Shown: positions 2,338 through 48,371 of the stretch, piece after piece
How positions within the stretch are numbered: position 1 is the first letter of the stretch
How the letters are laid out: each line of letters begins with the position of its first letter
Assembly: GCA_963781935.1 (NCBI GenBank)
Contig: CAWAHX010000006.1
Location: 4,481-68,480, forward strand
Direction of reading: 5' to 3'
DNA from: an uncultured Solirubrobacteraceae bacterium
GTDB taxonomy: Bacteria > Actinomycetota > Thermoleophilia > Solirubrobacterales > Solirubrobacteraceae
DNA length: 64,000 nucleotides
Position numbers and translations under genes: made by a program
The notes under the pieces: generated by a model
The model's input: the letters and a program-made list of their open reading frames with translations, nothing else
The model's database searches: none
What the model was told of the DNA's origin: nothing

Positions 2338-3625
2338 ATGAACGTCGGAGCACAGATCGCCGCGCCGCGGGGCAGCGTCTACGAGTTCGCGACGGAAGTC
2401 GCGCGCCTGTCGGGCGCCACGAGGATCCTCGACGTCAAGGAGGGCCTCGCACACCGCCGGCTCGAGCTTCCTCGCGCTGTCGTCGCGGACTCCGTGGTCG
2501 TCGCCGACGGCGTTCTGGGCCGACGCGTCGATGCGAACGGGTTGCTGGACGGTCATCGCGCAGCTCGCAGACGACGCCCCGGCCGTGGTGGTGTCCGTGC
2601 CCGGCAATGGTCGCGCGCTCGACGACCTCGTCGCAGTGCTCGAGCGGGCGGGGATGCCACCGACGTTCGCCGGATACACCGTGGACGATTCGCGTGGCCG
2701 GCGGGAGCCGACCACGCTGGCGGTGATCGAGCCACCGGCCGACCGGGTGGCGACAACGCCCCCGAGCGACTTTCGCGTGACCGCGGTGCTGCCGGTGTTC
2801 AACGAAGCCGACATCGTCGAGGCGGCGATCACCAAGCTCGTCGACGGGGGCGTCGACGTCGTCCTCGTCGACAACTGGTCGACCGACGACACGGTCGCCC
2901 GCGCGCAGGCCCTGGGCCTGGGCGAGCGCCTGACGCTGGAACGGTTCCCGCCCAGCGGGCCGACCGGGACCTTCGACTGGCAGGACCTGCTGCACAACAG
3001 CGAGGCGATCGCCGAGCGCCGCGGTGGCTGGATCACGCACCAGGACGTCGACGAGGTCCGCCAGCGGTCCTTGGCCGGGGCTCGGGCTGCGCGACGCCCT
3101 CTGGCAGGTGCACCGCCGCGGGATACAACGCGGTGAAGTTCACGTCTCTGGTGTTCCAGCCCGTGGACGACGGGTTTCAGCCCGGGGACGACTTCGAGCG
3201 GTACTTCCGCCACTTCGAGTTCGGCGATCGCCCGATGCACTTCGTGCAGGTGCGGGCCTGGAACGCCGACGCCGGTCGCGCGGACCTCGCTGGCGGGCGG
3301 GCACGACGCGCGTTTCCCGGGCCGGCGCGTCTTCCCGTACAAGTTCCTGCTGAAGCACTACCCGATTCGCTCTCAGGCACACGGCGAACGGAAGGTGTTC
3401 CGCGAGCGTCAGGCACGCTGGAACGCGGAGGAGCGGGCGCGTGGCTGGCACGTGCACTACGACGGGTTCGAGCCGGAGACGACCTCGTTTCTTCGCGACC
3501 CGGCCGGCCTGCTGGTCATGGACGAAGCGTTCGAGCGCCGCTACCTGACGGAGCGTCTCGCCGGCGTGGGCATTCCGCGTGAGGCGCCGGTCACGCCGCG
3601 GACGACGCAGGAGAGCGCGTCGTAG
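2338..3625 (+). pseudogene. Family-2 glycosyltransferase with N-terminal extension; about four frame breaks (~2525, ~3062, ~3115, ~3300)
   Basis: Segments in different frames are colinear: FRVTAVLPVFNEADIVEAAITKLVDGGVDVVLVDNWSTDDT...GGWITHQDVDEV, then PWPGLGLRDALWQVHRRG, then YNAVKFTSLVFQPVDDGFQPGDDFERYFRHFEF, then RRVFPYKFLLKHYPIRSQAHGERKVFRERQARWN...stop at 3625. A TAGCCT box lies 8 nt before ATG 2338. Confidence 0.55.
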
Positions 3626-4772
3626 CGGCGGGGCGGGGCGCCGGCTCGGCGGCGGGCGTGCCTGCTGCGCTCCACACCCAGAGCAGGGCGACCCAGCTGC
3701 AGGTCGCCATCACGACGTGCACCCACACGAGCCCGGTCGGGAGCTTCAGGGAGTACTGGATGATCCCCAGAAGGCCCTGCAGCGCGAGCAGCACGCCGAC
3801 GGTGGCGATCGGGATCAGCAGGCGGCCGGAGGCGTTGCGGAAGTAGGCGATCGCGAATGCAGCGATCGTCATCAGGCCGAGGATCACGGCGACCGTGCTG
3901 TGATTGCCCACCGCCCAGTCGAGCGTGTCCGAGCCCTTGACGTAGAGCCGCTTGATCAGGTCGTGCGTGCCCTTGCCGCCGCCGTGAGGGCCCGCCGCCG
4001 AGGCGGCGGTGCCGGCAATGACGACGACCGCGCCGACCGGGAGCAGCGCCCGCGCCGCCCACATCGTCAGGCGATCTTCGGCGCCGGCCGCGATGGCCCC
4101 GTCCTCCCACCCCGGCTTGGAGCGCCAGTACAGGGCCCAGGCGGCCACGATGATGAGCAGCGACAGGCTGTAGTGCCCCATGACGAAGCCGGGGCGCAGC
4201 TCGTACAGCACCGTCAGGCCGCCGAGCACCGCCTGCGCGACGACGCCGAGCGGCAACAGGACCGCGAGGACACACAGATCGCGCCGCCGCGGCACGCGGA
4301 AGAAGCTGAAGAACGCGGCCGCGAACGCCGCCAGGCTGACGGGGAACGTGAAGAGCCGGTTGCCGAACTCGATGAATCCGTGCAGGCCCGACGGGTTGTA
4401 GAGGCCCGTCTGCGAGCACTTCGGCCATTTCGGGCACCCCAGGCCCGAGCCCGTCACGCGCACGGCGGCGCCCGTGAAGACGATCACGACGAGCAGGACG
4501 AGCGCCGCCGTGGCGATCTGGTGGTACCGCTCGGGGCTGGTCTGGAGGCGTTGCGCGCATCGCCGTGCATGATGGCGGATCGCGGTCGCGAAGGGCTCAG
4601 GCGGGGCAGGTTCGAACGCGCTGCTGCGCAGCGACGTACAGATGCCAGTCCACACCGGGGGCCTTGTCGCGCACGGTGCGGACGATGGCGCTGCCGGGGG
4701 CCGCAATCGGCGTGGGAGTGACGGTGAACCGCTCGGCGAACCGACGCAGCTGCACGCCGACCGGAGAGCCAC
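3591..4772 (-). CDS. ctaA: Heme A synthase (COX15/CtaA family)
   Basis: Polytopic membrane protein with VRVTGSGLGCPKWPKC and conserved His-containing helices (GHYSL, VGNHST, VWVHVV). The start is uncertain. ORF start 4772 overlaps the upstream gene by 176 nt. There is no in-frame start between 4597 and TM1. An ATG at 4570 lies in another frame, so a 5' frame break is possible. Confidence 0.8.
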   Translation of the reverse strand: MALRSACSCVGSPSGSPSLPRRLRPPAAPSSAPCATRPPVWTGICTSLRSSAFEPAPPEPFATAIRHHARRCAQRLQTSPERYHQIATAALVLLVVIVFTGAAVRVTGSGLGCPKWPKCSQTGLYNPSGLHGFIEFGNRLFTFPVSLAAFAAAFFSFFRVPRRRDLCVLAVLLPLGVVAQAVLGGLTVLYELRPGFVMGHYSLSLLIIVAAWALYWRSKPGWEDGAIAAGAEDRLTMWAARALLPVGAVVVIAGTAASAAGPHGGGKGTHDLIKRLYVKGSDTLDWAVGNHSTVAVILGLMTIAAFAIAYFRNASGRLLIPIATVGVLLALQGLLGIIQYSLKLPTGLVWVHVVMATCSWVALLWVWSAAGTPAAEPAPRPAATTRSPASSAA

Positions 4773-6336
4773 GGCCCGTCGTCACGGACACCGAGTCTCC
4801 GGGGTGGATACGCACCACGAAGGACGGCGCTCCGGAGCCCGACGGTGTGAACGTGATGCAACGCCCGGCTTGCGCGAGGGCACCGCCCGTCGGCTCCTCC
4901 ACCGTCAGGACGGCGCCAGCGGCTGCCGCGTTCTGGGGCCCGTTTGCCGGGGCGAGCGGCACGATGCCCTCTGCACGGGCGACAGCCGCGTCCGCCGCTT
5001 GCCGACGACTCTCCGGCGCCTTGCCGGCGAGCCAACCGAGGCCGCCTGAGGCGCTCCCGAAGCGGCGCGTGGCCGCCAGGTAGGACCCGATCCGAAGGAT
5101 CTCCGTCGCGCGCGGGTCGACGAGGAGATCCGCGCGCGACGCTGCGCCCCCGACCTCGATTCCGGCCAGCTCGCCTCGCAGCGGCTCCCAGATCCCGCGC
5201 AGGAATCGCGTTGAGTCCCGCAGATGGAAGAGGTTCCCGAACGTCAGACCGACTACCACGACCACTGCCGTGGCGGTCATCCACGGTGTCCACCGCTGAG
5301 GCGCGGGCAACATCTCGGCCGCAACCAGCATCAGCACAATCGCTCCGAACGAGATGTAGCGGGGCGCACCAGGCTCGTGGAACTGTGCCCTGGTCACGGC
5401 CGTCAGCGTCCAGAAGCCGAGCCCGGCGACAAGCAGTGCCGCCAGCCTCGGCGACGGAAGTGGCGCACGGGCGTCGCCACGACGCAGGATGGCGACTGCG
5501 CCGATCCCTCCGGCGAGGATCACAGGTCCGTAACCGGCGGCCAACCCGGTGATCCCGGCCGCGGCCGCCGACGCCGCGTCGACGACATACTGAACCGCGT
5601 ACTGAACGTTGCTCCCGATCGCGTCGCTCCCGTCGCTGTATCCAGCCCTCCAGAGCAGGTACAGCCCGAGCGGAACGGCGAAGATCCACCAACGCCTCCG
5701 GCGACCCGGTTCGAGGAGCACCTCAACCGCCACTCCGAGCAGGATCGGAATGCCCATTCCCGCCGTCGCCAGCGACGCAGTAATGAGAATGCAGGCCCAG
5801 ATGTCGCGGCGTTTGGATGGCTGGTCGAGCAGCACGAACGCTCCCAGCCCGAACGCGAGCGCGCCGACCTGGCTGAGCTGGAAGGGGAGCAGAATGTTCT
5901 CTGCGCTCGCTGACATGAACAGCAGCAGGAACGCAGGGATCAGCGCCGCCCAGCCACCGAGCCGGCGACGGACGAGCACGTAGACGAGCACCACGCAGGC
6001 AAGGTGGGTGATGAGCACGGAGAGCCGATACGGCCAGTAGTGCCCGAGGCCGACGGTCGACCAGAGCGTCTTGTAAACCAGCACGGGGATCAACGAGAGG
6101 TGACCGTTGTGTGGTCGCAGGTAGGTATCCAACCCGCCCCCTTGGCGCACCGACAGGAACGTCCACTCGTCCCCGTAGAAACCGAGTGGACGGCCGAGCC
6201 AGAGGATCCCGATACCGCCGACCACGACGGCCGCCACGAGGATCGCAGTCTGGATACTGATCCGCCCTGCGATCAGGCGCGTCGGGGCCGCCGCCCGGCC
6301 GGTTGTCTCTGGGGAAGCGGCCTCAGCGGACATCAC
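4597..6336 (-). CDS. Large polytopic membrane protein, GT-C-like (putative polyprenol-phosphate-sugar dependent glycosyltransferase) with C-terminal extracytoplasmic domain
   Basis: Intact 579-aa ORF with many hydrophobic spans. An acidic motif, FYGDEWTF, follows TM1 directly, as in the first loop of GT-C enzymes. There is a soluble beta-rich C-terminus. The likely start is ATG 6333, with TAGCCT 7 nt upstream. Confidence 0.55.
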   Translation of the reverse strand: MMSAEAASPETTGRAAAPTRLIAGRISIQTAILVAAVVVGGIGILWLGRPLGFYGDEWTFLSVRQGGGLDTYLRPHNGHLSLIPVLVYKTLWSTVGLGHYWPYRLSVLITHLACVVLVYVLVRRRLGGWAALIPAFLLLFMSASAENILLPFQLSQVGALAFGLGAFVLLDQPSKRRDIWACILITASLATAGMGIPILLGVAVEVLLEPGRRRRWWIFAVPLGLYLLWRAGYSDGSDAIGSNVQYAVQYVVDAASAAAAGITGLAAGYGPVILAGGIGAVAILRRGDARAPLPSPRLAALLVAGLGFWTLTAVTRAQFHEPGAPRYISFGAIVLMLVAAEMLPAPQRWTPWMTATAVVVVVGLTFGNLFHLRDSTRFLRGIWEPLRGELAGIEVGGAASRADLLVDPRATEILRIGSYLAATRRFGSASGGLGWLAGKAPESRRQAADAAVARAEGIVPLAPANGPQNAAAAGAVLTVEEPTGGALAQAGRCITFTPSGSGAPSFVVRIHPGDSVSVTTGRGSPVGVQLRRFAERFTVTPTPIAAPGSAIVRTVRDKAPGVDWHLYVAAQQRVRTCPA

Positions 6337-39971: not shown

Positions 39972-41985
39972 ATGCCCAAGACCGCACTCATCACCGGGAT
40001 CACCGGCCAGGACGGCTCATACCTCGCCGAGCTGCTGCTCGAACAGGGGTACGACGTCCATGGCATGGTCCGCCGCTCGTCGACCGAGAAGTTCGACCGG
40101 GTCGAGCACATCCGCGACCGCATCACGCTGCACCAGGGCGACCTGCTCGACCAGCGCTCGCTGGTCGACACACTGCGTGCCAGCAAGCCGGACGAGATCT
40201 ACAACCTCGCCGCGATGAGCTACGTCGCCGCGTCATGGGTCCAGCCGACGCTGACCGCGGAGTTCACCGGCGTGGGCGTCACGCGGATCCTCGAGGCGAT
40301 GCGCGAGGTCTGCCCCGAGGCCCGCTTCTACCAGGCGTCCTCGAGCGAGATGTTCGGCAAGGTGCTCGAGATCCCGCAGACCGAGAACACGCCGTTCTAC
40401 CCCCGCTCGCCGTACGGCGTCGCCAAGGCCTACGGGCATTTCATCACGGTGAATTACCGTGAGTCATACAATTTGCACGCGACGTCCGGAATTTTGTTCA
40501 ATCACGAGTGCGTGCGTTCCACGACGCCCCTGCTGGTGCGCGAGCGCGGGACGGTCTCCGTCAGGACCGCCGCGGACCTTGCGCCGTACAGGCCCAAGGG
40601 CCCCAGCACCCAGTCGTTCGAGCTGCCGAACCTGACCGAGGTCTGGGACGGCGCAGACTGGACGCCGATCACGGCGGTCACGGCCACCCGCCGTCGCAGC
40701 ACGGACCCAGACCACCGCCTGCTCGCGGTGGAGACCCGGGCGGGCGTCGTCGAGGTCACGTCGCATCACCACATGCTCGATGCCGACCACGAGCAGGTCG
40801 TCGCCGGCGACGTCGCGGAAGGTGACCGGCTCGCCATCTGGGGTGAGGGCCCGTTCCTCGAGGACGCGACCCCTGACATCGCGCCGTGGACCGCAGTCAC
40901 CCCACAGCTCGCGGAGCTGCTCGGGTTGCTCGCGGCCGATGGGCACGTCGGGACCGACGGACGCCACGTCCAGTTCACGAACAACGACGAGACGCTGCGA
41001 CTGCGGGTATCCGAGCTGTGGTCCCGCTGCTTCCTGGGCAGCTCACGTGGCTGGAGCGGCCAGTCGGGGTTCAGTGACGCGGCGGTCGGCCAGCTTGGCC
41101 TGACCGGAGCGCCGGGGGCCGCGCCGTGGCTGCGAGACCAGCTCTACACGAAGCGCAGCCTGAAACAGGTTCCGCCGATCGTGCTCAATGCGGACCCGGT
41201 GGCCCACGAGGCGTTCCTCGCCGGCTATTACGCGGGCGATGGCCTCAAGCGGGGGAAGGGAGCGTCGATCAAGACCAACAGCCCCGTCCTGGCGCTCGGC
41301 CTCACGTGGCTCTATGCGCTGCGTGGCCAACAGGCCACCGTGTACGCCGAGCATCGCGACAACCGGACGTACTACCAGCTGAACCTCGCATCCTTGGATC
41401 GGGTCGGCGCAAAGGGTCAGCACCTGCGCAAGGATCCCGCCGAGGTGCGCCGCATCATCGAGCTCGAGGCCACCGTTGACGACGACTTCGTGTTCGACAT
41501 CGCGACGGAGAGCGGCGTGTTCGCGGCCGGTGTCGGGCGCGTGATCGTCCACAACTCGCCCCGCCGCGGGCTGGAATTCGTGACACGCAAGATCACCTGG
41601 CACGCCGCGGCGATCAAGCTCGGCAAGCGCGAGCGAGCTCGGGCTGGGCAACCTCGACGCCGAGCGCGACTGGGGCTACGCGAAGGACTACGTCGAGGCG
41701 ATGTGGCTGATGCTCCAGCAGGACGCGGCCGAGGACTACGTGATCGCCACGAACAACACGAACTCCGTGCGCGAGTGCGTCGAGATCGCGTTCGACGAGG
41801 CGGGGCTCGGGAGCTGGGAGCCCTACGTGGACCTCGACCCGAGCATGGTCAGGCCGGCCGAGGTCGACCAGCTGATCGGGGACTACTCCAAGGCGAAGGC
41901 CGACCTCGGGTGGGAGCCGAAGACCACCTTCGAGGAGCTCATCCGCCTGATGACGCGGGCGGACCTCGAACTGCTCTCACGATGA
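39972..41985 (+). CDS. gmd: GDP-mannose 4,6-dehydratase interrupted by an intein; the C-extein also carries a 1-nt frame break near 41634
   Basis: N-extein 39972..40508: [16 protein letters not shown]...ASSSEMFG...[10 protein letters not shown]...GILFNHE. C-extein 41556..41985: [14 protein letters not shown]...AIKLGK, then in the other frame [29 protein letters not shown]...[23 protein letters not shown]. The rest of track ORF 39972..42725 is read-through in a wrong frame. Confidence 0.85.
40509..41555 (+). mobile_element. Class-1 intein (349 aa) with LAGLIDADG homing-endonuclease domain
   Basis: Cys1 in [10 protein letters not shown] (block A), [12 protein letters not shown] (block B), [15 protein letters not shown] and [13 protein letters not shown] (dodecapeptide motifs), and [23 protein letters not shown] followed by Ser+1 (blocks F/G). 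It is in frame with the N-extein. Confidence 0.85.
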
Positions 41986-44803: not shown

Positions 44804-45889
44804 ATGCCCGTCCCGCTCTTCGACACGCGCACGCCGCTGCTCCCACTGCGCGCCGAGCTCGACGCCGCCATCGCCCGCGTCATCGACTCGGGCATGTTCA
44901 TCCTCGGCCCCGAGGTCGCGGCCTTCGAGCAGGAGTTCGCCGCCTACTGCGGCGTCCCACACGCCGTCGGCGTGGCGAACGGCACCGAGGCGCTGACGAT
45001 CGCGCTGCGCGCGCTCGGGGTCGGGCCCGGCGACGAGGTGATCGTCCCGTCGTTCACGTTCTACGCGACCGCCGAGGCGGTGCCGCCGACCGGCGCGCGC
45101 CCGGTGTTCTGCGACGTCGATCCCGACACGATGTGCGTGACCGCCGACACCGTGCGCGCAGCGCTGACGCCGCGCACGAAGGCGGTCGTCGCGGTCCACC
45201 TGTTCGGGAACATCGCTCCGATCGCGCGAGATCGCGGCGCTCGGCCTGCCCGTGATCGAGGATGCGGCTCAAGGCGCGGGCAGCACCAGCACGGCCGGCC
45301 GCCCCGGGCTCGCTGGGGACGATCGCCACCTTCAGCTTCTTCCCGTCGAAGAACCTCGGCGCGTTCGGCGACGGCGGGGCGATCACCACGAGCGACGGCG
45401 ACCTCGCCGACCGCGTGCGGATGCTGCGCTTCCACGGCTCGTGGGACAAGGTCACCTACGAGCACGTGGGCTACAACTCGCGCCTGGACGAGCTGCAGGC
45501 GGCGATCCTGCGCGTCCAGCTCCCCCACCTCGACGCATGGGCGGACGGACGCCGTGCCGCCGGCCGTCACTACGAGCAGGCGGGCCTCGGCGACCTGGTC
45601 GACCTCCCCGTGCCGGCGCCCGGCTCGCAGCCCGCCTGGCATCTCTACGTCGTGCGCAGCCGGCGCGCCGACGCGCTCGCCGACGCGCCTCAAAGCCGCC
45701 GGGCACGGCGCGAAGGCCTACTACCGCACGCCGGTGCACCGCCAGCCCGCGATGCTCGAGTACGCCGCCGGGGCGGAGCTGCCCGTCACCGACGAGCTCG
45801 CCCGCACGCACCTGGCGATTCCGATGAGCCCCGTGCTCAGCGCGCAGATGGCCGGCGAGGTCGTCGCCGCCGCCCGCACCGCCGGGTAG
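44804..45889 (+). pseudogene. DegT/DnrJ/EryC1/StrS-family PLP sugar aminotransferase; three frame breaks (~45228, ~45308, ~45690)
   Basis: FILGPEVAAFEQEFAAYCGVPHAVGVANGTEALTIAL...VIVPSFTFYATAEAV, then IAALGLPVIEDAAQ, then SLGTIATFSFFPSKNLGAFGDGGAITT (catalytic Lys), then AKAYYRTPVHRQPAM...LAIPMSPVL. Each break can be repaired by removing a single C. Confidence 0.7.
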
Positions 45890-45940
45890 CACGAAGGGGC
45901 GGTTGCCCGCCCTTTCCACCTCCAATGTATATCCGACAGG

Positions 45941-45959
45941 GGGGCTTGAAACAAGCCCC
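45941..45959. promoter_or_regulatory. Perfect 8-bp-arm palindrome GGGGCTTG-AAA-CAAGCCCC, resembling the rifamycin-associated element (RAE)
   Basis: It lies 60 nt upstream of the Rox-like monooxygenase ATG, in the only clearly A+T-richer intergenic stretch of the window. CATAAT (45971-45976) follows, and AGGAG precedes the ATG. Confidence 0.5.
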
Positions 45960-46018
45960 GGGTCGTGCCGCATAATCGCCCGCCGCATCCCAGAACCCAC
46001 GGAAAAGGCAGGAGCGAC

Positions 46019-47522
46019 ATGACGACCGAGCATGCGGTGGTGATCGCCGGAGGCGGTCCGGCGGGGATGATGCTGGCGGCTGAGCTGGCGTTGGCGAAGG
46101 TCGACGTCGCGGTCGTCGAGCGGCGTCCCGATCACGTGCTCGTCGGCTCACGCGCCGGCGGCTTTCACTCGCGCACGATCGAGGTGCTCGATCAGCGTGG
46201 GGTCGCTGATCGGTTCCTCGCAGAGGGTCAGGTGGCTCAGGTCGCGACGTTCGCCACCACCGCGCTGGACATGAGCGATTTCCCGACACGTCATCCGTAT
46301 TCGCTCGGGATCTGGCAGAACCAGATCGAGCGGATCATGGCCGCCTGGATCGCCGAGCTGCCGGTGCAGATCCGTTACGGGACCGAGGTGACGGGCTTCG
46401 CGCAGGACGACAGCGGCGTCGACGTCCACCTGTCAGACGGTCGCTCGCTGCGGACGCACTACCTCGTCGGATGCGACGGAGGACGCAGCGCCATCCGCAA
46501 GGCCGCCGGCATCGAGTTCCCCGGGTGGGATCCGACGACCAGCAACCTGATCGCCGAGGTCGAGATGACCGAGGAGCCGGAGCTGGGCATCCGCCGCGAT
46601 GACAAGGGCATACACGGACTCGGCAGACTGGGATACGAGATCCGCGACGGCGAGGTGGTCTACATGGACGGCGGGCCTGTGCGGGTCATGGTCACCGAAC
46701 GGCACCTCGGACCTGCCGGCGAGCCCACCCTGCGCGATCTGAGCGAGGCACTCATCGACGTGTACGGCACCGACTTCGGAGTCCACGATCCGACGTGGAT
46801 CTCGAGGTTCACCGACATGACCCGTCAGGCGGCCACCTACCGCGCGGGACGAGTCCTGCTCGCCGGCGACTCGGCGCACGTGCAGTACCCGGCGGGTGGA
46901 CAGGGCCTCGGCCTCGGTGTGCAGGATGCGGTGAATCTGGGATGGAAACTGGCCCAGGTGGTCAACAGCGACCTCCCCGGCGAGCCTTCTGGACACCTAC
47001 CAGGACGAGCGCCACCCGGTTACCGCCCGCGCGCTGCGGCACACCATGGCTCAGGCCGTGCTCCAGCGCCCCGACGAGCGCATCCAGGCGCTGGCCGCTG
47101 TCATTTCGGAGCTGGCGATCATGGACGAGCCTCGCAAAAGGCTCGCCGGGATCATCTCCGGGCTGGACATTCGGTACGACCTCGGCGAGGGACATCCGCT
47201 GCTCGGACGCCGGATGCCCGATCTGGACCTCGTGACCGCCGACGGCCCGCTGCGGGTGTTCACCCTGCTGCACGATGCCCGGCCGGTGCTGCTGAACTTC
47301 GGTGAGCCCGGCGGCTTCGACATCGCGCCGTGGGCGGACCGGGTTCCGTTGATCGATGCCGACTACGCCGGTGAGTGGGAGCTCCCGGTACTTGGCGCGG
47401 TCACCGCTCCCACCGCCGTGCTGGTCCGGCCCGACGGATACGTCGCGTGGGTGGGAGACCTGGGCGACGAGGTGCTGCCCGTCGCGCTCACCACCTGGTT
47501 CGGACAGCCCTCTGCGGCGTAG
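46019..47522 (+). CDS. Class A FAD-dependent monooxygenase (PheA/TfdB family, Rox/rifampicin-monooxygenase-like); one frame break near 46963
   Basis: HAVVIAGGGPAGMMLAAELALA (GxGxxG), YLVGCDGGRSAIRK, VLLAGDSAHVQYPAGGQGLGLGVQDAVNLGWKLA. It continues in the frame of ORF 47046..47522: LLDTYQDERHPV...IRYDLGEGHPLLGRRMPD...AVLVRPDGYVAWVG. Confidence 0.7.
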
Positions 47523-47540
47523 GCGTAGCGTGCCGCTGAC

Positions 47541-48371
47541 ATGGAGCGCGCCTTCCCCAGACCCGCCGCCGCCGACGCGGCGGGAGTGACCGAGCTCGTC
47601 GCGGCACTCGAGTCCCTGCTCTACGGACAGAGCACGTTTTCGCAGGCCGATCTGGAGGACGAGTGGTCGGACCTCGACCTCGAGCAGAACGCAGTCGTCG
47701 TCCGCGACGGCGACCGGATCGTCGCCTACGGCGCGGTGCGCGAGGCAGGCGAGCTGTGTCAGGCCGAGGGGTATGTCCACCCCGACGCACACGGGCAAGG
47801 AATCGGGAGGCTGATCGCGACCGGGCTCGAGGAGGACGCGGTCCGCCGCGGCGCGCGCAGGGTCCACAACCGCGTCTACGAGACCGACACCGCCGCCCGC
47901 AGGCTGCTCGCATCGCTCGGCTATGGCGCCGTGCGCGTCTTCCGCGAGATGCGCATCGAGCTCGAGGCGCCGCCGCCCGCACCCGCGTGGCCGGACGGGC
48001 TGCGCGTCGTCCCCTTCGACCCGCAGCATGATGCGCTCGAGTTCCACGCCGCGCACCAGGAGGCGTTCGCGGACCACTGGGAGTACGCGCCACGCGACTT
48101 CGAGTCGTGGTCGAACTGGTACCTGGGGAGCGAGCGCTTCGACCGGACGCTCTGGTGTGTCGTCCGCGCCGGGGACGAGATCGTCGCCGGGACGATCTGT
48201 ACGGGCGACACATACGGCGGCGGTTTCGTCCACGTGCTCTTCACGCGCCGCCCGTGGCGCAACCAGGGTGTCGGCGCGGCGCTCCTCGGCGACTCGTTCG
48301 GGCGCTTCTGGGAGCGCGGCGAGCACAGCGTCGGGCTCGGCGTCGACGCGGCGAGCGACACCCCCGCCTAG
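47541..48371 (+). CDS. GNAT-family N-acetyltransferase (two GNAT-like halves)
   Basis: VHPDAHGQGIGRLIATGL and FTRRPWRNQGVGAALLG are acetyl-CoA binding Q/RxxGxG/A motifs. TAGCGT lies 9 nt before the ATG. Confidence 0.75.
   Translation: MERAFPRPAAADAAGVTELVAALESLLYGQSTFSQADLEDEWSDLDLEQNAVVVRDGDRIVAYGAVREAGELCQAEGYVHPDAHGQGIGRLIATGLEEDAVRRGARRVHNRVYETDTAARRLLASLGYGAVRVFREMRIELEAPPPAPAWPDGLRVVPFDPQHDALEFHAAHQEAFADHWEYAPRDFESWSNWYLGSERFDRTLWCVVRAGDEIVAGTICTGDTYGGGFVHVLFTRRPWRNQGVGAALLGDSFGRFWERGEHSVGLGVDAASDTPA

Follow-up and report, generated by a model that had tools for sequence, protein, structure and literature searches.

A rifamycin-associated element with an A/T centre precedes a Rox-neighbour monooxygenase gene in an uncultured Solirubrobacteraceae bacterium

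Is a flavin monooxygenase gene lying inside a sugar gene cluster of an uncultured actinobacterium controlled by a rifamycin-responsive promoter, and could its product act on rifamycins? The question is raised by a stretch of 64,000 nucleotides (the window) from an uncultured Solirubrobacteraceae bacterium (assembly GCA_963781935.1, contig CAWAHX010000006.1, positions 4,481 to 68,480 of the forward strand). In the initial annotation, made from the letters alone, a 19-bp palindrome in this window was proposed to be a rifamycin-associated element (RAE), and the gene behind it was assigned to the Rox/RIFMO branch of class A flavin adenine dinucleotide (FAD) monooxygenases. The locus contains a real RAE cassette in a lineage-specific form, placed before a monooxygenase that is a neighbour of Rox and belongs to an uncharacterised clade very commonly linked to RAEs. 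The regulatory half of the first reading is right, more strongly than it was proposed.

The RAE was defined by Spanogiannopoulos et al. in 2014, as cited in 10.1101/2021.05.10.443488, and the consensus used here was taken from later papers that quote this definition. Its arms are the inverted repeat GGGGCTTG / CAAGCCCC, in which G/C variation is allowed at arm position 4. In a 2025 survey of Actinomycetota (10.1101/2025.08.06.668190), the queries used were the 19-mers GGGGCTTGCGGCAAGCCCC and GGGCCTTGCGGCAAGCCCC and two mixed forms (GGGC/GGCC variants), the central triplet being CGG in all four. At positions 45941–45959 the window carries GGGGCTTGAAACAAGCCCC, a perfect 8+3+8 palindrome, as had been claimed. 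Its arms are exactly those of the published 19-mers, so that the consensus given in the initial annotation was correct, and only the centre differs (AAA, not CGG). This is the sole site of the window with three or fewer mismatches to GGGGCTTGNNNCAAGCCCC. It is also the sole site in the 3.3-Mb, 10-contig assembly at one mismatch or less to a looser RAE pattern; at its completeness of 65%, the assembly yielded no second RAE.

A species-wide scan (one genome per species, 185,579 species, arms fixed and centre free) was carried out, and about 90 of the 120 matches listed share long conserved flanks, cctTTCCACtTCCAAcgTATAgCGCACcGG upstream and GGGTcGTGCCGCAgAATCGcCGGCCG downstream. A position matrix was then built from the flanks only, using 44 modules with CGG or CCG centres from other genomes, none of them of this lineage, and excluding the palindrome. 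The window site scores 71.7 bits with this matrix, while the runner-up among 6,627,542 genome positions scores 1.1 bits; the site is therefore recognised as an RAE module independently of its palindrome. It overlaps the -35 region of a promoter and stands, within the conserved flanking module, before a gene of the resistance type. By these comparisons, 45941–45959 is identified as a genuine RAE inside a full conserved RAE promoter module.

The central triplet and the host set this site apart from the known actinobacterial RAEs (architecture as given in PMC10719064). The centre of the latter is CGG or CCG, and the survey that used exact CGG-centre 19-mers, dated 2025-26, describes RAEs as 'largely constrained' to the class Actinomycetes (10.1101/2025.08.06.668190), whereas the host of the window is Thermoleophilia-type and falls outside that class. 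An exact-arm search of 301 evenly sampled genomes from the order gave 26 sites in 25 genomes, and the pattern read backwards, used as a control, matched in one genome among the same 301. The centres of the 26 sites were AAA/TTT (12), AAT/ATT (7), TAA/TTA (2), ATA/TAT (1), CAA/TTG (2) and CGG/CCG (2), that is, 24 non-CGG centres, 22 of which consist of A and T only. Across the 120 matches listed in the species-wide scan, CGG/CCG is the majority centre (63/120). Among the same matches, the named records that combine an A/T centre with the module flanks are nearly all metagenome-assembled genomes (MAGs) labelled Solirubrobacterales, Solirubrobacteraceae, Conexibacter or Thermoleophilia, and the nearest protein relatives of the window monooxygenase bear the same type of label. 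At orthologous loci of the same genus the arms are perfect and the centres are TAA, TTT, TTT and the canonical CGG. The syntenic metagenome contig L150, which is 89.6% identical to the window over 4.77 kb, has TAA. Judging from these counts, an A/T centre is the normal RAE form of this order and, since 24 of the 26 sites are non-CGG and close relatives vary, the element is free of constraint at its centre in this lineage.

Altered palindromes also occur at related loci. A second, decayed copy of cassette and gene is present in a genus relative (L009/L139, G015:C20 ~4436-6075), with 89% DNA identity to the window; the gene there has acquired a TGA stop and frame shifts, and the palindrome now reads GGGGCCTTCATGAAGCCCC, with shortened arms and one extra base. 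The locus of the closest protein relative (L149, 92% identity) has at the RAE position (3381-3398) an 18-nt imperfect palindrome, GGGGCTTGATTAAGCCCT; either the RAE has decayed there or the contig, which comes from a long-read metagenome, contains a sequencing error.

The anatomy of the cassette was derived from an alignment of 73 modules, whose features were mapped onto the window (Table 1). A G+C-rich hairpin opens it. Its end lies 24-25 nt ahead of the palindrome in 39 of 70 module loci, and its arm sequences vary among loci yet stay complementary, the 5' side being purine-rich and the 3' side pyrimidine-rich. The strongest flank conservation is found upstream at A-17, T-13, A-12 and C-8 and downstream at the A, A and T of cAtAAT. 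On the reverse strand only, positions -17, -13 and -12 spell T-A-n-n-n-T, a putative -10-like hexamer that lies 11 nt from the palindrome edge, the same distance as the forward hexamer. The RAE-to-CATAAT spacing of 11 nt equals that of the Mycobacterium smegmatis arr promoter, whose oligonucleotides place the RAE at -74 to -56 and CACAAT eleven bases on (PMC7882622). The succession of CATAAT, an AGGAG Shine-Dalgarno sequence and the gene, whose ATG is at 46019, was found as initially annotated, and the leader GCCG.A.CCAGAACC.ACGGAAA..GGAG is common to modules ahead of flavin monooxygenase, Rph, HelR, Rgt-like and Arr genes.

Table 1. Features of the RAE locus in the window (positions counted from the first letter of the 64,000-nucleotide stretch)
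Feature	Position	Strand	Basis
2.48-kb segment with hairpin, RAE cassette, monooxygenase and GNAT genes; absent from a close relative	45885..48360	+	empty site in G068
G+C-rich hairpin (10-bp stem, 4-nt loop) opening the conserved cassette	45893..45916	+	fold -18.2 kcal/mol, z = -3.6
TACATT, TAnnnT (-10-like) hexamer mirroring the forward -10	45924..45929	-	flank conservation; putative function
RAE, 19-bp palindrome with canonical arms, centre AAA	45941..45959	.	sequence match and flank-only matrix
-10 hexamer CATAAT, 11 nt past the palindrome	45971..45976	+	consensus cAtAAT; A2, A4, T6 conserved among modules
Conserved 5' leader including the AGGAG ribosome-binding site (46010-46014)	45977..46018	+	shared module leader
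FAD monooxygenase, N-terminal part, 316 codons, FAD_binding_3	46019..46966	+	PF01494 7.6e-69; NF005303 539.6 bits
One-base frame-break zone	46964..46968	+	one base more than nine orthologues and L150
FAD monooxygenase, Rng_hyd_C portion (C-terminal, next frame), stop codon 47520-47522	46968..47522	+	PF21274 3.1e-28; NF005303 297.2 bits
Two-domain GNAT acetyltransferase, 18 nt downstream of the monooxygenase, co-directional	47541..48371	+	PF00583

The cassette thus described resembles the known RAEs in its 19-bp palindrome with identical 8-nt arms, in its distance of about 60 nt from the start codon of a resistance-type gene, in its overlap with a promoter -35 that is followed, 11 nt past the palindrome, by the -10, and in its flanking module. 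In tested systems induction by rifamycin requires the RAE, which overlaps the -35 of promoter 2 (10.1101/2021.05.10.443488, 10.1101/2021.05.10.443476, PMC10719064). The literature places the start of a sense promoter 1 some 20 bp upstream and describes the mechanism of the RAE, and any regulator of it, as unknown (PMC10719064, PMC12802891). Inducibility has been tested in those systems and is a prediction for the window.

Some other features of the spacer were considered. A scan with consensus promoter and terminator models gave nothing; the best -35-like sequence, TTGAAA, sits 19 nt from CATAAT and the scan covered spacings of 16-18 nt. The only match in an Rfam scan of 45700-46200 was to an miRNA family, at chance level (E 0.52). 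The leader word GAACCTAC contains TAGGTT, a candidate antisense -10, which was set aside because the window has GAACCCAC at this place and the ungapped alignment becomes poor past +40. Nor did the palindrome stem convincingly continue into the flanks, where complementarity is only 4 bp and shifts in register. The description of this spacer as the only A+T-richer one of the window does not stand, since its G+C content is 0.636 and 197 of 3194 129-nt intervals have equal or lower values; the G+C content of the monooxygenase gene (0.686) is unremarkable.

Turning to the enzyme, the gene encodes a class A flavoprotein monooxygenase, with an FAD_binding_3 domain that carries the GxGxxG, DG and GD motifs and a C-terminal aromatic-ring hydroxylase domain. 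All the motifs that had been quoted are present, GGGPAGMMLA, CDGGRS and GDSAH...GGQG...QDAVNLGWKLA up to ~46966, and SLLDTY...DIRYDLGEGH...VRPDGYVAWVG in the next frame. These motifs are common to the whole group and do not assign the enzyme to the Rox/RIFMO branch. The NCBIfam model for rifampin monooxygenases (NF033145, cut-off 800 bits) gives 320.7 and 119.0 bits to the two pieces of the window gene and 458-467 bits to intact relatives, which leaves them outside this family; a true Rox-clade, RAE-linked enzyme of Streptomyces scabiei (L013) reaches 814.5 bits. The best model is NF005303 (PRK06834, 'hypothetical protein', cut-off 625 bits), for which the two pieces cover the adjoining profile positions 2-306 and 307-487 and give a rough sum of 837 bits. 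Intact members of the clade score 850-887 bits, and the window protein belongs to this family.

A maximum-likelihood tree was made with 41 RAE-linked monooxygenases (from the matches listed) and five PDB sequences taken from alignments. Rox (5VQB) and RIFMO (5KOW) fall with five Actinomycetes sequences in a clade of seven rows with 100/100 support, and the window protein falls in a separate 100/100 clade that contains 33 RAE-linked monooxygenases; a third clade has three members. The tree gives 87/84 support to the window clade, the Rox clade and OxyS together versus PgaE/CabE and does not resolve the order of these three. Therefore, of the initial assignment, the part that stood is a class A FAD monooxygenase neighbouring Rox and RIFMO, and the part that did not is membership in their branch, by both the NF033145 score and the tree. 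By the same evidence the enzyme is best regarded as a neighbour of Rox/RIFMO, not as an orthologue of them or a member of their clade.

The frame-joined protein, used for alignment only, is 45% identical to RIFMO, 44% to Rox, 46% to OxyS, 43% to PgaE and 42% to CabE. Rox of S. venezuelae (5VQB/6BRD), RIFMO of Nocardia farcinica (5KOW/5KOX) and the family NF033145 share with the window enzyme its class, its length, its domain order and its place behind an RAE; the window enzyme differs from them in its separate clade, in its scores of only ~440-467 bits on NF033145 and in its rifampicin contacts, which are considered below. OxyS, PgaE and CabE (4K2X, 2QA1, 2QA2) have the same fold. They are biosynthetic tailoring enzymes encoded in polyketide clusters, whereas the window gene stands alone behind a resistance promoter, without biosynthetic neighbours. 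More than 100 intact relatives of ~499 residues are 87-92% identical to the window enzyme. Their names in the databases are generic only, and other sources give them names of unrelated hydroxylases. A search of the assembly, at its completeness of 65%, showed no close paralogue of the gene.

The genes that follow RAE modules bear on the substrate. Among the matches listed, the first open reading frames behind module-positive sites are FAD monooxygenases (47) and proteins of ~880 (18), ~716 (10), ~405 (5) and ~145 (3) residues. Representatives of the ~880-residue class are Rph (1536-1571 bits, cut-off 999), those of ~716 residues are HelR (1270-1281 bits, cut-off 750) and those of ~145 residues are Arr (187-192 bits, cut-off 130); the ~405-residue class is Rgt-like, with 401-532 bits, under the cut-off of 800. 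The clade of the window enzyme provides the commonest gene behind these modules, since 33 of the 41 monooxygenases in the tree, from the matches listed, belong to it. Because the other classes are rifamycin-resistance functions and this clade is the commonest of the genes so placed, rifamycin is the likely substrate, an argument by association: the monooxygenase most likely oxidises and so inactivates rifamycins.

Relics of coding sequence support the idea that these genes draw on a common promoter. Rph proteins of Solirubrobacterales (L034, L047, L055, L090, L091) begin with MGTEEHAAVVAGGDP, a relic of the N-terminus of the PRK06834 clade (MTEHAVVIAGGGP), which indicates that the cassette moved from a monooxygenase gene to rph with the first codons included. 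A remnant of a glycosyltransferase N-terminus, MRVLLSTYGSRGDVEP..., is found in many leaders of HelR, Rph and monooxygenase genes. Taken together, the relics in leaders and in Rph indicate that the resistance genes exchange one and the same cassette. The glycosyltransferase relic is of the Rgt type (ATGCGTGTGTTGTTGTCGACGTAT..., that is, MRVLLSTY...) and was seen in L005 (~1440-1500), L149 (3460-3505), L131, L059, L076, L014, L109, L120, L058 and L118. In L005 and L149 it forms an upstream open reading frame of 14 codons; its TGA shares bases with the monooxygenase ATG (ATGA), an arrangement suggestive of translational coupling. Unlike these two, the window leader has no such upstream frame, and the window ATG stands where the relic ATG would be.

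The module and its gene are also present in records labelled Chloroflexota, Myxococcota, Pseudomonadota, Acidobacteriota, Eremiobacterota, Dormibacterota and Vulcanimicrobiota. Complete modules with resistance-type genes, from MAGs and isolates, are those of L027, L031, L042, L052 and L064 (Chloroflexota), L036, L043 and L114 (Myxococcota-type), L066, L118 and L081 (Pseudomonadota), L032 (Acidobacteriota), and L128, L092, L063 and L110. The monooxygenases of non-actinobacterial records sit on short branches within the clade of the window enzyme, which indicates transfer of the gene together with its promoter across phyla, with binning errors in MAGs as a possible contribution. One of these loci, L114 of Minicystis rosea, comes from the complete genome of an isolate.

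A close relative, G068, has an empty site, which supports the statement that the locus interrupts a sugar cluster. In it (G068:C12 8184/8189) the end of the DegT gene (93% over 1585 nt) directly meets that of the hexapeptide-transferase gene (97% over 540 nt). The ends of these two convergent genes are four bases apart there, and the segment 45885-48360 is missing. The junction shows only CCGCC-like microhomology, with no target duplication or terminal repeat. In L150 the same insertion is present, and the segment was either gained here or, as the alternative reading of the same comparison would have it, lost in G068. The monooxygenase gene is patchy in the genus, occurring in about 6 of 44 other genomes, and its neighbours elsewhere differ from those of the window. 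In other relatives the matching DNA extends from the hairpin to the monooxygenase stop codon; since the matches span exactly this interval while the neighbours differ, the conserved unit is hairpin, cassette and gene.

The GNAT gene does not belong to this unit, because in 48 other loci no match to the GNAT, DegT or hexapeptide-transferase genes was found beside the monooxygenase. It lies inside the inserted segment both here and in L150. No DNA homologue of it was found in the 44 genomes of the genus, and relatives of its protein are common in Solirubrobacteraceae metagenomes, in unrelated contexts. The protein gives a weak MshD-like match (51 bits) and is 24-27 residues shorter than its relatives of 300-303 residues. 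Truncation by the junction of the segment was dropped as an explanation: L150 has the same ends yet a product of 300 residues, so the difference is internal.

The frame break that had been placed near 46963 is present in the assembly (Table 1), as a single additional base. The same assembly also splits the essential gene rpoC across two overlapping frames (G000:C5:1879691-1879924, outside the window). Within 5 kb upstream of the locus, gmd changes frame at 41633-41635 without loss of residues, residues 166-204 of a paralogue mapping to frame 1 and residues 205-320 to frame 2. Single-base indels are scattered throughout the coding sequence between L150 and the window, and L150 does not have the extra base of the window and has breaks of its own elsewhere. 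The rpoC break is probably a sign of single-base assembly errors, which would also explain a marker completeness of 65% for a 10-contig assembly. Because the assembly breaks rpoC and gmd too, the break in the monooxygenase gene cannot be read as gene decay, and it is quite probably an assembly artefact.

The explanation that we favour brings these observations together, and its probability as a whole is put at about 0.7. The palindrome is the core of a complete cassette of ~125 bp, which begins with the upstream hairpin and continues with a conserved box, the RAE, 11 nt of spacer, CATAAT, the conserved leader, AGGAG and ATG, in the form normal for Solirubrobacterales-type Thermoleophilia, with an A/T central triplet in place of CGG. 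The palindrome overlaps the -35 region of the promoter reading into the monooxygenase gene and, by analogy with tested RAEs, we infer that this gene is near silent until its transcription is raised by sub-inhibitory rifamycin. The PRK06834-clade product would inactivate rifamycins by oxidation. Cassette, monooxygenase and GNAT genes were gained, or lost elsewhere, as one 2.48-kb segment within a glycan gene cluster, and the one-base break is most likely an error of the assembly.

Several observations weigh against this explanation. Of the 14 rifampicin-contact residues of RIFMO (list from PMC11375879, after Liu et al.), only five are kept (His46, Val71, Phe256, Pro283, Gly285); Arg201 is changed to Gly and Phe69 to Ala, and Phe74 is opposite a gap. 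Against the PDB, a full-length orthologue scores slightly better with OxyS, its top match (383 bits), than with RIFMO (370) or Rox (354). In Mycobacterium abscessus, deleting Rox homologues without an RAE had no effect on the rifamycin phenotype (PMC8370238), so that homology alone is a weak predictor of rifamycin function. In the literature searched, no assay of a PRK06834-clade enzyme and no experiment on an RAE with an A/T centre were found, and neither Rph nor HelR was found in this 65%-complete assembly. With respect to regulation, the centres read in the direction of the gene are, among the matches listed, CGG in 34 versus CCG in 15, TTT in 10 versus AAA in one and ATT in five versus AAT in one (counts among related sequences, which do not amount to a statistical test), so the AAA of the window has the rarer orientation. 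This orientation and the replacement of the leader word GAACCTAC by GAACCCAC could mean that the window copy is regulated atypically. Lastly, the frame break could be real.

If the break is real, the cassette would be genuine and the locus dead, a recently inactivated pseudogene of a rifamycin-inducible monooxygenase. The break does stand in the assembly, outside any long homopolymer, the gene is patchy in the genus, and the stop and frame shifts of the second copy in G015 (contig C20), behind its degenerate palindrome, show that decay of this gene does happen. This possibility is nevertheless considered unlikely: rpoC and gmd are broken in the same way, L150 lacks the extra base and has different single-base indels in the same gene, third codon positions keep a high G+C content before and after the break (0.84 and 0.87), and the remaining reading frame and the whole cassette are intact. 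A live gene could also serve another purpose, in which case the promoter would respond to rifamycin or to RNA-polymerase stress and the enzyme would act on some other aromatic polyketide-like compound. The clade is equally near to OxyS (46%) and to Rox/RIFMO (44-45%) in a three-way split, nine of the 14 RIFMO contact residues differ, and the relatives are named only generically. However, the remaining classes behind the module are all rifamycin-specific (Rph, Arr, HelR, Rgt-like proteins and true Rox), and the N-terminal relics show these genes exchanging one cassette, which makes a different substrate improbable, to a degree comparable with that of a dead locus.

Much less can be said for the idea that the palindrome is a terminator, or a chance G+C-rich hairpin after DegT, with no relation to the monooxygenase. 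It would form a stable hairpin (-17.9 kcal/mol) in an intergenic spacer behind a co-directional gene, and some unrelated exact-arm matches do look like terminators, with T runs after them (L017, L030). In the window no T run follows the palindrome and the terminator scan was empty; moreover, the module is recognised from its flanks alone at 71.7 bits and the palindrome travels with the monooxygenase into unrelated contexts. The arms kept at orthologous loci and the flank score refute this idea for practical purposes, and its chances are minimal.

How such a cassette could work in so many hosts is a further question. The spread over several phyla argues that the module may need little beyond RNA polymerase. 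A speculative answer, which we consider unlikely, is that the RAE is not an operator for a regulator and instead provides the shared -35 region of two back-to-back promoters, rifamycin being sensed through RNA polymerase itself. The -35 hexamer of each strand would be TTG plus the central triplet, and a -10-like hexamer would lie exactly 11 nt beyond the palindrome on either side. The dual promoters of Bacillus subtilis helD/pps, described as a rifampicin alarm in PMC12802891, are a partial parallel: there too a rifampicin-responsive promoter precedes resistance genes with no need of a dedicated regulator, and the RAE module likewise has two -10-like hexamers on opposite strands and spreads among phyla with its gene. 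The B. subtilis promoters are convergent and have no RAE, whereas the hexamers of the window, the minus-strand one being putative, point apart around a shared palindrome. If true, the two-promoter arrangement would explain why the cassette is portable in at least seven phyla, why the arms are invariant while the centre is free yet biased in orientation, and why a hairpin lies upstream, where a backward transcript would start. It would also predict higher basal expression and weaker induction for the flipped AAA centre of the window, which gives TTGAAA toward the gene and TTGTTT away from it, the reverse of what is usual in the order.

Current searches thus underrate the spread of both the RAE switch and this enzyme family. 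Surveys based on exact CGG-centre 19-mers miss 24 of the 26 copies found here, and the reach of rifamycin-inducible resistance is underestimated accordingly in soil actinobacteria of the Solirubrobacterales type. For the mechanism of the RAE, a question since 2014, invariant arms combined with the centres AAA, TAA, TTT and CGG among relatives that are 90% identical amount to a natural mutagenesis series. Among the matches listed, the commonest gene behind RAE modules is not Rox and belongs to an uncharacterised sister clade, which NCBI calls 'hypothetical protein'. If it is true that this clade inactivates rifamycins, catalogues of resistance genes would lack a major family that crosses phyla.

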